From Heptranchias perlo (taxonomy: Eukaryota), in the NCBI RefSeq assembly GCF_035084215.1, contig NC_090339.1:38812001-38876000 (forward strand): a stretch of DNA of 64,000 nucleotides, read 5' to 3'. The notes below the pieces were generated by a model that was not told where the DNA came from, searched no databases, and was given only the letters and a program-made list of their open reading frames with translations. Below, piece after piece: positions 51,550 through 59,119 of this stretch. How positions within the stretch are numbered: position 1 is the stretch's first letter; every line of letters begins with the position of its first letter. The position numbers were made by a program, and so were the translations under genes.

Positions 51550-53865
51550 TGTGTTCATGAGAACGTTCTTGATCAGTATGTTTCCGACCCAACGAGGAAG
51601 GAGGCATTGCTGGATCTAGTTCTGGGGAATGAAGTGGGTCAAGTGGAGCAAGTCTCAGTGGGGGAATATTTAGGGAACGGTGATCATAGTATCATAAGGC
51701 TTAGATTAGTTATGGAAAAGGACATGGAGCAATCTAGAGTAAAAATGCTTAATTGGAGGAGGGCCAACTTCAGTGGGATGAGAACAGATCTGGCCTGGGT
51801 AAATTGGAATCAAAGATTGACAAGCAAAACTGTAATGGAACTGTAATGTAAAGAGATGGTTCAGATACAGTCTAGGTACATTCCCACGAGGGGGAAAGAT
51901 AGGGCAACCAAAGCCAGAGTTGACAAAAGAGATAGAGTGTAAGATAAAGCAGAAAATGGGGGCATATGACAGATGTCAGGTTGATAATACAAGTGAGAAC
52001 CAGGCTGAATATAGAAATTACAGAGGAGAAGTGAGAAAGGAAATAAGAGGGGCAAAGAGAGAGTATGAGAATAGACTAGCAGCTAATATAAAAAGGAATT
52101 CAAAAGTCTTCTATAGGTATATAAATAGTAAACGGGTGGTAAGAAGAGGGGTGGGGCCGATTAGGGACCAAAGAGGAGATCGACACAGGGAGGCAGAGGG
52201 CATAGCTGAGGTACTAAAAGAGTACTTTGCATCTGTCTTTACCAAGGAAGAAGATACTGCCAAAGTTACAGTAAAAGAGGAGGTAGTTGAGAAACTGGAT
52301 GGGCTAAAAATTGATAAAGAGGATGTACTAGAAAGGCTGTCTGTACTTAAAGTAGATAAGTCACTTGGTCTGGATGGGATGCATCCTTAGTTGCTGAGGG
52401 AAGCAAGAGTGGAAATTGCAGAGGTGCTGGCCATAATCTTCCAATCCTCCTTAGATATGGGGGTAGTGCCAGAGGACTGGAGAATTGCAAATGTTACCCC
52501 CTTGTTCAAAAAAGGGTGTAAGGATAAATCCGACAACCACAGGCCAGTGGTGGGTAAGCTTTTAGAAACGATAATCCGGGACAAAATTAATAGTCACTTG
52601 GACAAGTTTGGATTAGTAAAGGAAAGCCAGCACAGATTTGTTAAAGGCAAATCGTGTTTACCTAACTTGATTGAGCTTTTTGATGAGGTAACAGAGAGGG
52701 TTGATGAGGGCAATACGGTTGATGTGTATATGGACTTTCAAAAGTCATTTGATAAAGTGCCACATAATAGGCTTGTGAGCAAAACTGAAGCCCATGGAAT
52801 AAAAGGGGCAGTGGCAGCATGGATACAAAATTGGCTAAGTGACAGGAAGCAGAGAGTAGTGAACATTTGTTTTTTGGACTAGAGGAAAGTATACAGTGGT
52901 GTTTCCCGGGGGTCAGTACTAGGACCACTGCTTTTTTTGACATATATTAATGACTTGGACTTGGGTCTATCGGGCACAATTTCAAAAATTGCAGATAACA
53001 CAAAACTTGGAAGTGTAGTAAATAGTGAGGTGGATAGTAATAGACTTCAAGAGGACATAGACAAGCTGGTGGAGTGGGTGGACATGTGGCAGATGAAATT
53101 TAATGCAGAGAAGTGCGAAGTGATACATTTTGGCAGGAAGAATGAGAAGAGGCAATATAAACTAAAGGGGGTGCAGGAACAAAGAAACCTGGGGGGTATA
53201 TGTACACAAATCTTTGAAGGTGGCAGGACAGGTTGAGAAAGCGGTTAAAAAAAGCATACAGTATCCTGGGCTTTATAAAAGCAAGGAAGTTATGTTGAGC
53301 CTTTATGAAACACTGGTTCAGCCACAACTGGAGCATTGTGCCCAATTCTGGGCATTGCACTTAAGGAAGGATGTGAAGGCAGAGAGGGTGCAGAAAAGAT
53401 TTACTAGAATGATTCCAGGGATGACGGACTTCAATTATGTGGATAGACTGGAGAAGCTGGGGTTGTTCTCCTTAGAGCGGAGAAGGTTAAGAGGAGATTT
53501 GATGGGGTTGTTCAAAACCATGAAGGGTTTAGATAAAGCAAATAAAAAGAAACTTCCCATTGGCGGAAGGGTCGAGAACCAGAGGATGCAGATTTAAGGT
53601 GATTGGCAAAAAAACCAAAGATGACATGAGGAGAAAATTTTTTACGCACCGAGTAGTATGATCTGGAATGCGCTGCCTGAAAGAGTGGAAGCAGATTCAA
53701 TCGTGCCTTTCAAAAAGGAATTGGATAAATACTTGAAGGGAAAATGTTTGCAGGGCTAAGGAGAAAGAGCAGGGGATTGGAACTAACTGGATTGCTCTTA
53801 CAAAGCCGGTACAGGCTCGATGGGCTGAATGGCCTTCGCCTGTGCTTTAACCATTCCATGATTCA
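51550..53865 (+). mobile_element. CR1 LINE ORF2, disrupted, preceded by an inverted CR1 tail (51370-51550)
   Basis: LLDLVLGNE...GDHSII, VVPEDWRIANVTPLFKKG, YMDFQKSFDKVPH, KIADNTK and 3' tail. Confidence 0.93.
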
Positions 53866-54870
53866 GAGAATTCAATATGGTTGGTGAAGCCATGACCTTC
53901 CCTTTTGAAATCTGTGCTGACTATTATTATATTTTTGGTTTCCAGATGATTTTCTATTACATCTTTGAGTAAGCAATCCATTATCTTTCCTACCACTGAT
54001 GTTAGCTAACTGGTCTATAGTTCCCTGGACTTGTTCTATCTCCCTTTTTAAATTTAGTAATCACATTGGCTCTCTGCCAATCCTGGCACTATTCCCTTTT
54101 CTATTGAATTTTTATATATGTGTAGTAGTGCCTCTGCTACCTCTTCCTTAACTTATTTTAGTGTGCATAGATGTAATCCATTCGGACCAGGGGTTTTATC
54201 CTCTCTAAAGTTTGATTGGTTTATCAATTATCTCCCCCCTTTCTATCTTAAATGTCTTTATATCTTCTTTGATCTCTTCTAATGTCATGCCCACCATGTT
54301 AGTCTCCCTGTTAAATACTGAGGCATAGTTATTATTTAATATTTCTGCCAGTTCGCTGTCATTACCTGTGATTTTATCGTGTGTATCCCTTAGTGGCCCT
54401 ATCCCTATCCTGATTTTTCTTTTGTTATTTATGTGTCTGTAGAATACTTAACTATTTCTTTTTATAATATCCTTGATAATTTAATTTCATAGTTTCTCTT
54501 TGTCTTCCTGATTGTTTTTTTTGACTTCTTTCCTAACCTTTTCGTATTCCCTTTTGTCATCCTCTCCTTTGATGTCTCTGTACTTAGTGTATGCCTTTCT
54601 CTTTAGTTTCAGTTTTGCCCTTATTTCTTTATTCATCCATAGTGTGTCATTACTGGCTAGTTTGTACTTGCTTTTTAGTGGGATATATTTCTCCTGGACT
54701 CTACTGATCACTGTTCTAAATGTTTCCCACTGCTGTTCTATTTCTTTGTTTGTCAGTAAATTTTTCCAGTTTATTTTCCCTAGTTGCATTCTCATCCCCT
54801 TAAAATCAGCTTTTTCCAATTTATTACTTTGGTCTTTGCCTTACTTATGTCCTCAATCTTTATCTTAAAC

Positions 54871-55318
54871 ATGATGTGGAGATGCCGGTGATGGACTGGG
54901 GTGGACAAATGTAAGGAGTCACACAACACCAGGTTATAGTCCAACAGCTTTATTTGAAATCACAAGCTTTCGGAGCTTTGCTCCTTCATCACCTGACACA
55001 CTATGGATGAATAAAGAAATAAGGGCAAAACTGAAACTAAAGAGAAAGGCATACACTAAGTACATAGACATCAGAGGAGAGGATGACAAAAGGAAATATG
55101 AAAAGGTTAGGAAAGAAGTAAAAAAAACAATCAGGAAGACAAAGAGAAACTATGAAATTAAATTATCAAGGATATTATAAAAAGAAATAGTTAAGTATTC
55201 TACAGACACATAAATAACAAAAGAAAAATCAGGATAGGGATAGGGCCACAAACTCCGAAAGCTTGTGATTTCAAATAAAGCTGTTGGACTATAACCTGGT
55301 GTTGTGCGACTCCTTATA
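54871..55318 (-). mobile_element. Penelope-like terminal fragment with inverted arms, enclosing an inverted copy of flanking DNA; 12-bp TSD
   Basis: TTTATCTTAAAC at 54859-54870 and 55319-55330. Arms 54907-54975 and ~55254-55321 are inverted repeats. The LINE frame rejoins across the insert. Confidence 0.75.
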
Positions 55319-56382
55319 TTTATCTTAAACGTTATTATGCTGTGATCGCTATTGCCTAAATGTTCCCCTACGTTCACTTCGCTTATCTGTTCTGGTTCAT
55401 TTCCCATTACTACATCCAGCAGTGCTTCCACGCTTGTTGGGCTTTTTACATACTGGGTAAGAAAGGAGTCCTGCACATATTGTAAAAACTCCATTCCCTT
55501 TACCTACCTCTTCTTGCCAGTTCATTTGGGGGTAGTTAAAATCTCCCATGATTATTATTCTATGTCCTTTACTCATTTCACATACTTCTTTCTCAACCTC
55601 CTTTCCACTATTAGGTGATCTGTAGTATGCCCCTATTTGTCTGTCTGATTGATCCCTTATCTTTTATTTCAAACCATATGGATTCAGTTTCTATCCTTCG
55701 GTTAATTACGTCCCTTTTTTCTACTGCCATTATGTTATCCCTAATTAGTACAGCTACTCCAACACCCGCCCCCCCCCCGCTTCTCCCCTATCCTTTCTGA
55801 TTATGCTATAACCACCAATATTTAGTTACCAGTCCTGTTCTTTATGTAGCCATGTTTCAGTTATTCCTACTGTATCTGGTTCCGCGTTATGGATTATTGC
55901 CTCTAGTTCCCCATTTTATTTTGGACACTGTGCACATTGCTATACAGGCAGTTTAATTCGTCTTTAATAGTTATTCCTTTTATTTGTAACAGTCCTTTTA
56001 TACTTCTGTTTTATAACTGTTTTTGTTTCTTGACCGTTCATGTTATCTTTATTCCTTACCCTGGTTTGACCTTTAAACTCGTCTCCTGTTTCTTTTATCT
56101 TTAGGCTTTTGTTATTGCTACCAGATCCTTCCCCCCATCTTGCTAGTTTAAAGCCTTATCCACCGCCCTATTTATCCTTTCTGCTAGGACTCTGGTCTCA
56201 CTCTGGTTCAGGTGGAGCCCAGTACTGGTGCCAGTGTCCCATGAAATGGAACCCTCCTTCCTACACCACTCTTTCAGCCACGCATTCACCTTTCTGATCT
56301 GCCTATCAGTATGTCAATTAGCCTGTGGCTCAGGTAGTAATCCTGAGATTACCACCCGTGAGGTCCTGCTTTTTAATTTAGT

Positions 56383-56630: not shown

Positions 56631-58540
56631 ACGCTTCTGATACTAGCTTCTGATATTCTCTTAGCAGGACCTCCTCCTTGTTCTTCCTTATGTCATTGGT
56701 GCCGACATGGACCACAATAACTGGATCCTCCCCATCCCTTTCCAAGTTCCTCTCCAGTTGCTCTGAGATGTTTTTTATCCTTGCACTGGGTAGGCAATAC
56801 ACCCTCCTGGACTCTGTCGTGACTGCAGAGGATGCTATGTATCCCCCTAATTTTGGAATCCCGTATGACTACAACCTTTCTATTCTAGTCCTCCCCCTCC
56901 ATTCCACCTCCCCCTCCACCCCCCTTGGACTGCCTCATGCTCCAGGTTCCCTTAGTATTCTGGAAATCCTCCCTGCAGCTTTCATCCTTATCCTCACAGG
57001 TATCAAGTACCTTGCACCTGTTGGATAGGACTAGTGTCTGCGGGACCTCCTTCTCTGCCTCCTAAGTTCCCATTACCCTGCTGAGTGACAGTTACACTTT
57101 CCCCTTCTTGCACCTGTGCTTTCCTCTTGAGGTGTGACTGTACTCTGGAAAAACTATCTAGATATTCTTCCCCCTCCCGTATGTGTCGGAGTGTCTCTAA
57201 CTCGCACTCCAGCTCAAAGACTCTGAGCTGGAGTGTCTCAAGCCAGAGACATTTCCTGCAGATGTGGCAATCTGGGACCGTCTCGCTGTCCACAAACTCC
57301 CACACATTACAGTCCTGAGACACATTACAGTACTGCCATTTCTAGTTTTTTTTTATTATTATCAGTAATTTCTAGGACTAATAGAATCACTTGAGATCTA
57401 GATTATATATAGTAAATGGATTTTGAAATTATTAGTAATTACTTAGTCTTTAAAATTTAAGTTTTAAGAGTTGATTGATTAGTTTATAGTTCCTTGGTTT
57501 ACATTACTTAGCACCTCCTTCCCCCTCTGCACCTAATTCTCATGCTCACCAAATTCCCAGTTGAAAGTTCTCACTCTGTTAGCAGTTCACTCCGTTAGAA
57601 GTTCACTGTCTGTCTTTACCAACCTCACAAGCTCAGTTAACAAGTTAACATGCAAAAAAATGAATGACCTCAGTGTTATATGGTTTTACAATTTGAAGAT
57701 AAACAGAAGCAGTCCAGGTGTGTAATTAGTACATTTTGTCATGTTTGCACGTTTCTGTGTTTCCCTCTCACATACAGCCAATTTTTAGTTTTAAAAACTC
57801 AATATTAATTCTACCTGAATAAAGCTTTTGAAATTTGTTCTTAGTTTTCCGTAGTTATTTCAAGAAAAACTTATCATACTGTAGGAGGTTGAAGACAAGC
57901 ATTTTGCCTGTTGAGCTGATAAAATGTTAATAACACATCCTAGGAAATTGTGCACACTGCACATGCTGAGATTGCAGGCTCTGCTTTCAGCTAACAGTCA
58001 TAGCTCTGAGCAAAAATACAAATCCAAGGCCAAGCTTTTGAGAGATGCTAAAGTAAAAACATTAATGAAAGTATTCAAAGAAACAAAAGAAAACTTTGTA
58101 GTTAAATTTAATAATGTTATTCAAAAATTTGTGATTTTTATGCCCATATATGTTACAAACCTTATTTTGGACAACATAAATATCAGTTACTGAGTGAAAA
58201 ACAGGGGGCATTGTTTTTCAAACAGTGATTTTAGTGTTTTGATTGTTACAACTTCTTTGTTTTATAGGTAGGTTCTCCTCACTGGCCACTGAGGAGTGGT
58301 TGTTTTCATAAGACCTTAAAAGTGTGACAGAAAAGGAGTAATTAAAAGGAAGTAATTGTTACTTGAAAATACAGGAAGAAAGAAAAATTGACAGATAAAA
58401 CAGAGGACAAACAATAGGAAACTTTCAAACAGGAGATAATTAGGATGCAAATTAAATATATTCTGACAAGAACTAAAAGGGTTCTTAGATGGATAGGGAA
58501 ATTGAAATGAAAATGACAATTGCAGGTCTAATAATACAAA

Positions 58541-58757
58541 TTGTAAACAATTTTACAACACCAAGTTATAGTCCAACGATTTTTATTTGAAATCTACAAG
58601 CTTTCGGAGGCTTCCTCCTTCCTCAGACATTTACCTGAGGAAGGAGGAAGCCTCCGAAAGCTTGTAGATTTCAAATAAAAATCGTTGGACTATAATTTGG
58701 TGTTGTAAAATTGTTTACAATTGTCAACCCCAGTCCATCACCGGCATCTCCACATCA
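58541..58757 (+). mobile_element. Penelope-like terminal fragment forming an 88-bp inverted repeat; 12-bp TSD
   Basis: TAATAATACAAA at 58529-58540 and 58758-58769. Arms 58539-58626 and 58635-58722. Shares the terminus ccccagtccatcaccggcatctccacatca with the insert at 54871. Confidence 0.8.
58635..58670 (+). ncRNA. Minimal hammerhead-ribozyme-like motif (mirror copy on the - strand at ~58591-58626)
   Basis: CTGAGGA-A-GGAGG-aag-CCTCC-GAAA-GCTT gives the CUGANGA core, a 5-bp stem II, GAAA and a palindromic AAGCTT. The cleavage triplet and stem I are not clearly canonical. Confidence 0.5.
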
Positions 58758-59119
58758 TAATAATACAAAGACAATCAAGTAGGAAGTCCTCTGGTTAGGC
58801 ACAACAATGAAGGTGTTTGGCAGAACTGGGGTATGGAATGTGAGGTTTGGCTCACTAGTAGATTCCTGCAGTTTGGCAATACTTGGGGAATAAGAGCACA
58901 GGTCTGATATAACTGAGGCAGGGTCTCATTCTGGTTCGTAAGTTTCAAAGAGATCTTTGCAGGCCTTAAGTTAAATGTTTGTGGTTGATTTCAAACCCAA
59001 AGACTGTCACTGGGAAATAAAGTGGTCAAGCTCCAAGGTGGCAGGGAGCACAGTGATGGGAAGGCCTGAGGCACAAAGGTCATGGGGACAGGAGTTGGAA
59101 ATAAAATATCTGAGTCCTG

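Follow-up and report, generated by a model that had tools for sequence, protein, structure and literature searches.

Penelope-like insertions in the genome of Heptranchias perlo that hold copies of their own flanking DNA

The window (the whole stretch of 64,000 nucleotides that was analysed) contains a Penelope-like insert lodged in a decayed LINE remnant of Heptranchias perlo. The features and their coordinates are listed in Table 1. The remnant, which we take to be CR1, gave a weak match to PF14529 (E=0.054). A preliminary description had the insert splitting a CR1 endonuclease region. A LINE is indeed the target, but the insertion site lies just downstream of its last endonuclease motif and the donor segment lies in the linker between endonuclease and reverse transcriptase (RT). 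As first described (about 450 bp with a 12-bp target site duplication, TSD), the insert is 448 nt in length with the 12-bp TSD TTTATCTTAAAC on both sides. The inverted arms (54904-54978 and 55250-55324) are 95% complementary. The 256-nt spacer is the reverse complement of the donor, and the 4 substitutions and 1 indel counted earlier by eye between it and DNA about 220 bp outside the insert were confirmed; identity was 97.7% over 260 columns when the alignment was extended to 54390.

Table 1. Features of the focal insertion and of the LINE around it, with positions in the window.
Feature	Position	Strand	Basis
Decayed CR1-type LINE remnant (insertion target and donor source)	53847..55787 (approximate extent of ORF2 fragments seen)	-	Frames between stops, with peptides resembling an endonuclease C-terminus, a linker and an RT start
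Donor segment, 221 nt left of the insertion	54393..54649	+	Alignment, genome match, shared variants
Left TSD, 12 bp	54859..54870	+	TSD comparison
Penelope 'tail' of about 36 nt, on one arm only	54871..54906	-	Sister copies; tail described in PMC3846280, PMC8557442 and PMC11167929
Left arm: element 3' end in antisense, ending inside the hammerhead-like motif	54907..54991	-	99% identical to many copies
Residue of the standard centre joint, a TCA overlap followed by sense CCTGAC, the last 4 nt of which are the donor microhomology	54989..54997	+	
Captured spacer, copied inverted from 54393-54649; takes the place of about 8 nt of the sense arm	54994..55249	-	
Right arm: element 3' end in sense, without tail	55250..55318	+	
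Right TSD, 12 bp	55319..55330	+	

The focal copy has the commonest centre of its own subfamily, but with about 8 nt of the sense arm swapped for the spacer. The same type of centre joint was present in L022, L023, L028, L041, L042, L044 and L046. Microhomology at the left junction had been noted as the 3 nt TGA. It is present but measures 4 nt, TGAC, as judged from sister copies, which read ...CATCACC-TGAC-GAAGG. The right spacer junction showed an imperfect match (C-T/A-AAG). The repeat pairs are interleaved in the order donor, arm, spacer, arm. One 256-bp stem was predicted on folding, as expected for any inverted duplication. The long nested dsRNA or cruciforms suggested earlier are unsupported, as the interleaved repeats give a stem with a 344-nt loop and the single 256-bp stem excludes pairing of arm with arm. 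The focal locus is a functionless scar from a known kind of process and bears no sign of function. A second, ordinary Penelope palindrome of another subfamily lies in the window at 58541-58757, with the tail on the right and no spacer; its 12-bp TSD is at 58529-58540 and 58758-58769.

The arms are the 3' end of a Penelope-like element (PLE), and long copies run on through a 3' UTR, a GIY-YIG-like frame, a linker and an RT. The RT fragment of the long copies matched PF00078 (E=3.6e-9) and contained GTAMG and YIDD motifs, presumably those of a PLE-type RT. Endonuclease-like residues were read by motif 3' of the RT in 4-5 copies (VYLIRC...WYIGET, then R/H/E/N-like residues). Neither the 241-aa frame adjoining the endonuclease frame nor an N-terminal PLE fragment had a match in Pfam. 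A C-x4-C-x2-C linker was found between RT and endonuclease in L030, L047, L049 and L201. The Neptune group is recognized by a CX2-5CxxC linker, which is in part common to Nematis and Naiad (PMC8557442). Going by this putative linker motif the element fits the Neptune definition. A one-sided tail of 30-40 nt, an inverted truncated end and a TSD were found, the features by which EN+ Penelope-like insertions are defined (PMC8557442, PMC3846280). Penelope-like inverted ends and a hammerhead-like motif on the minus strand, both claimed earlier, were seen, but the motif is without the first core C and its plus-strand version is split by the spacer. Sister copies carry a CTGAYGA-stem-GAAA pattern which is broken in the focal copy. 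A search of Rfam gave no hammerhead at E<=5 and no relevant family, and single-strand folds did not give the hammerhead shape. Minimal PLE hammerheads have been described (PMC7761336).

The usual product of this element is a short palindrome composed of TSD, tail and antisense arm, centre, sense arm and TSD, with both RNA 3' ends facing outward. At least 17,107 short two-armed copies were found with one exact pattern (centres of 16-76 nt). The modal TSD was 12-13 bp, and 104 of 132 simple one-tailed two-armed copies had a TSD of 9 or more. Canonical PLE insertions are similar to these, with head-to-head inverted ends, one tail of 30-40 nt, a TSD and host DNA between the repeats (PMC3846280, PMC8557442). 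The centres differed from copy to copy by overlaps of 0-3 nt or short added pieces. In many, the last bases of the arm had been copied again in short tandem, which points to repeated priming at the joint. Among 57 short copies, the tail-less arm extended deeper into the element in 25 and the tail arm in 13; some subfamilies in this sample have no long reference, and part of the copies had been retrieved with the centre sequence of the focal insert. A second arm made by plain fold-back of the tailed cDNA would not give the longer tail-less arms. Among 104 copies, none clearly joined arms of two subfamilies within a single TSD, L114 being only suggestive. In L055, L065 and L079 rare variants are common to the two arms of the same insertion, indicating either one source element or later homogenisation. 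Three near-identical complex Penelope joints lie within 25 kb of each other (G000:C3:86631350, 86637439 and 86656353), which suggests local tandem duplication. A long two-armed copy with a shared TSD (L031 with L201, G000:C18:65654604 onward) has PLE coding pieces in both orientations and encloses a LINE with a 739-aa open frame.

The spacer was searched against its own 3.25-Gb genome, giving 3621 candidates, of which 40 matches were scored. As the preliminary description had predicted, the best non-self match was the donor at 54393-54649 (98%) and private variants were shared; the next-best were at 92-93%, and the other 38 scored matches together spanned 90-93%. Three changes (five columns: 54450, 54467-9, 54510) were common to donor and spacer and occurred in none of the 18 next-best copies (0/18), and five more shared columns occurred in only 1-2 of the 18. 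Compared with these 18 copies, the differences between donor and spacer fell on both. The shared private variants and the best genome match identify a local source for the spacer, and changes on both donor and spacer are unlike a mis-assembled duplicate. The focal event is real and not a duplicated piece of contig, and it is much younger than the host LINE copy. No element arms were found at the 18 next-best spacer matches (0/18). The composite was absent from these matches, and no re-mobilised composite was seen; the earlier idea that host DNA could be transduced is unsupported. Nearly the same LINE linker segment was captured independently at L192 (G000:C5:85408392-85408668), from that locus's own local copy (99.5%).

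Local spacers were absent from the 29 best sister copies. They were also absent from 30 loci picked with a pattern that excludes the usual right-arm join, which were mostly direct joins. Long-centre two-armed copies were examined at 121 loci (35 of 130, 43 of 108, 32 of 71 and 11 of 173 listed), of which 65 were taken automatically and 56 were picked by hand before their flanks were seen, mostly for a centre that did not look like the element. Local donors were found in 1/15, 7/24 and 13/26 of the automatic sets. Non-element centres numbered 65. A clear donor in the own flank was found for 49, five were ambiguous (L141, L149, L157, L214, L216) and 11 had no nearby donor in the 1.5-4 kb of flank examined. 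The 49 include six weaker cases, namely L096, L135, L153 and L195, which are LINE-derived (93-95%), and L123 and L150, with 20-26 nt. Loci L106 and L126 were set aside as nested insertions. The recurrence test proposed earlier, there for DNA within 1 kb of the insertion, gave 49 clear further cases in the flanks examined here. As a rough estimate, with bins scaled, the genome holds about 100-150 capture events, or 0.5-1% of two-armed copies. Two of the 11 donor-less centres were searched genome-wide and both were distant in origin. The 210-nt spacer of L101 had one 97% match on another contig (G000:C5:127630826-127631035), which may reflect distant capture or transduction. The L144:4031-4155 spacer was 100% identical to at least 32 places, some paired 7-10 kb apart, and is a piece of a very young high-copy repeat, possibly of LTR type, captured in trans.

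The anatomy of capture was scored in 40 cases, the focal one included. The four classes were about equal in number. On the tail side 9 copies were inverted and 12 direct, and on the side without the tail 8 were inverted and 11 direct. Local inverted duplications, foreseen in the preliminary description, do occur, but that picture was too narrow: direct copies were as common (23 versus 17 of 40, p=0.43) and both flanks were used equally (21 versus 19). Spacers measured 20-282 nt and donors lay 52-1684 bp away (median 420 bp), 32 of the 40 within 1 kb. No donor beyond 1.7 kb was found among clear cases at loci where 4-kb flanks were examined. For all 40 spacers the own flank matched better than any other of about 199 examined loci. 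Of the 40, 28 had a recognizable TSD of 11-15 bp.

Microhomology of at least 2 nt was present at 18 of 30 clean junctions compared to 19% in a simulated null (p=7.5e-7). The focal locus was excluded from this count as it matched its own duplicates, L123, L150, L194 and L198 were omitted as short or nested, and five junctions were unscored. Extra bases were present, or the junction fell outside the reference set, at 35 of the 67 scored junctions. Donor-proximal and donor-distal junctions were no different in microhomology, so the direction of synthesis is not shown by it. Multi-piece spacers were found in L104, L105, L195 and L198; four spacers had two pieces, and one of these drew on both flanks. 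Together with the self-templated repeats in centres they fit repeated priming. Locus L208 (G000:C30:24258680-24258922) has three arms; one end folded back over its own arm and some 70 nt of flank, yet was joined to another, separate arm. In L100 and L122 (G000:C4:119859580 and C2:152208189) the palindrome runs 19-22 nt into the captured DNA and both arms meet the same distal donor end, as nascent-strand fold-back or later hairpin correction would give. These two loci do not follow from plain resection and stay unexplained.

Pooled divergence was 1.9% between spacer and donor, 1.9% between arms and 0.7% to the nearest copy. Arm-arm and spacer-donor divergence were weakly correlated per locus (0.29, p=0.08). 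Spacer-donor divergence rose with distance to the nearest other copy (Spearman 0.56, p=8e-4, n=33), and perfect spacers were present in 11 of the 20 youngest copies and in 0 of 4 older ones. Spacer age tracks element age, which favours capture at or near insertion, although an early secondary break would also be compatible and the arms may be homogenised.

In the reading that we prefer, with a probability of about 0.6, both target nicks would prime cDNA and the two 3' ends would be joined by synthesis-dependent end joining that sometimes copies the flank. The Neptune-type element would nick an AT-rich target on both strands, with 12 bp between the nicks. From each 3'-OH reverse transcription would start in the 3' region of the RNA, presumably at the end of the tail for one and at its start for the other. 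Priming at the two bounds of the tail would turn both arms outward and keep the TSD. Two-strand, two-start chemistry has been demonstrated in vitro for the lizard (Anolis) PLE (PMC11167929), and cutting and extension of both strands from two sites bounding the tail predicts outward arms with one tail. Both cDNAs would end close to the hammerhead stem-loop. The two single-stranded 3' ends would then need joining, as at a double-strand break, usually via 1-3 nt of microhomology. At the focal locus the top-strand end would make a first abortive join (CCTGAC), fold back to pair with its own strand at TGAC/GTCA, about 345 nt upstream, copy 256 nt away from the break, release and join the right arm. 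Inverted copies would arise by priming in cis and direct copies by priming on the partner end, in both cases with either flank as source. The 5' strands would be resected by up to 1-2 kb, with the extended 3' ends keeping the TSD. Resected 5' strands, and 3' ends priming on their own or the partner strand, would give the four classes seen.

The order of these steps, the resection and copying by a host repair polymerase are what we infer as the best, and probable, explanation of the observed local source, recurrence, geometry, microhomology and age correlation. The preliminary description had the RT or repair machinery switching template onto adjacent target DNA during integration. The local template and the guidance by microhomology were borne out and integration is the most likely time, while the element RT and a host polymerase as copier are not distinguishable from sequence. 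Several observations run against the end-joining reading. The focal spacer interrupts a standard centre that had already formed, which a later break would give too; arm-arm and spacer-donor divergence are only weakly correlated; 35 of the 67 scored junctions have extra bases or lie outside the reference set; microhomology is alike at the two donor ends; L100 and L122 do not fit plain resection; inserts of Pol-theta in C. elegans are far shorter and closer than Penelope spacers (PMC5068794); and 11 centres are without a nearby donor.

The position of the focal spacer, 6 nt beyond the standard centre joint, would suit a later accident in which a finished palindrome broke at its centre, through hairpin or cruciform cleavage or fork stalling, and repair copied local DNA. 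Near-perfect palindromes of 200 bp are fragile, the TSDs would survive such a break and at least 17,107 targets exist. Against this, spacer age tracks element age, none of the four older copies has a perfect spacer, and spacer-donor divergence (1.9%) is not below that between arms (1.9%) or to the nearest copy (0.7%). Spacer-bearing copies also have arms that extend to the usual centre region, a feature that the search pattern itself demanded. A later accident is unlikely. The LINE origin of the spacer and the abundance of LINE DNA of this kind (the 3621 candidates) might suggest an assembly artefact, or a pre-formed chimera of element and LINE piece whose landing close to a similar LINE copy was chance. 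Either is extremely unlikely, as private variants are shared, both copies have changed since duplication, 0/18 next-best matches carry arms, and many sister spacers have no good match in any other examined locus.

The element RT might instead jump during integration onto nearby single-stranded DNA or nascent local RNA, and then back or to the partner end. Template jumping and snap-back have been reported for R2 (PMC11371274) and capture of local pre-mRNA for L1 (PMC10191854). The two spacers of far origin, from another contig and from a young high-copy repeat, are as RNA capture would give, and L100 and L122 have both ends at a single donor end. Against this reading, both orientations and flanks are used equally and donors stop at about 1.7 kb, probably tighter than expected for intronic RNA, and the parts of the PLE sources covered here report no DNA-templated jumping by a PLE RT. 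Such jumping is unlikely. A bolder form, also unlikely, is that integration holds the break open, that 1-2 kb of the flanks become single-stranded and that the element's telomerase-related RT jumps onto host DNA. If true, the spacers, at least 100 in number, would document RT template jumping and the lengths of germline resection across the genome, and the trapped host DNA could be a first step of the PLEs' known intron-keeping gene capture.

The end-joining reading has counterparts in known systems. In L1 twin priming, as proposed for PLEs, both nicks prime, the cDNA ends join by microhomology and the flank is copied in a small share of cases (bioRxiv 10.1101/2024.08.27.596794, PMC10191854, PMC11702581). 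Flank copying by L1 was reported in the same sources as 22 instances among about 3,598 insertions of a classified set, as 0.3% foldback of 52-220 bp and as 3 cases. The estimated PLE capture rate of about 0.5-1% resembles that of L1 templated insertions, but geometry and distance differ. The L1 templates described there typically lie at the 5' junction or no more than 15 bp from the site, compared to a median of 420 bp in either flank and orientation for the PLE. Unlike in L1, both PLE cDNAs start at the RNA 3' region and the copy sits between two arms. Synthesis-dependent MMEJ by Pol-theta likewise relies on short microhomology, copies templates in cis (inverted) or in trans (direct), primes repeatedly and on rare occasions takes a distant donor (PMC5068794). 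Its inserts in C. elegans are mostly below 25 bp and primed within 10 bp of the break (PMC5068794), whereas the PLE spacers are 20-282 nt from 52-1684 bp, in a search that was aimed at long centres. Of the marks of end joining, junction microhomology and a flank-derived template were found, and a short insert primed within about 10 bp was not. In the R2 5' snap-back the cDNA 3' end primes synthesis on itself or nearby target, as proposed here, but that system is single-ended, site-specific and engineered, with no second arm (PMC11371274).

Among PLEs, unrelated host DNA has been described between pLTRs in Adineta vaga, and palindromes have been ascribed to self-priming on an antisense template (PMC3846280). 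The source of the captured Adineta DNA was untraced in the account given there (PMC3846280), whereas the own flank was the source in 49 clear cases here. A spacer taken from the own flank means that the centre was made or remade at the target site, which argues against a palindrome pre-formed by self-priming. In vitro the Anolis Poseidon PLE, like the element here, has both strands cut and extended, two RT starts bounding the tail and AT-rich targets; the parts of that work consulted leave the joining steps open and do not treat an inverted centre or flank capture (PMC11167929). No report of flank-templated centres in Penelope insertions was found in the literature searched, with subscription papers and supplements outside its scope, and one paper's phrase referred to RNA-templated products. 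The origin of PLE inverted ends is described as unresolved (PMC8557442, PMC11167929).

The flank-capture class is a new, countable variant that bears on this open question of PLE integration. Landing-site DNA in the centre of an insert links the cutting and extension of both strands seen in vitro to a structure found in genomes. The class is large, often young and can be found with one pattern, which makes timing, tract length and enzyme testable. Capture by PLEs is also a route to small local duplications.
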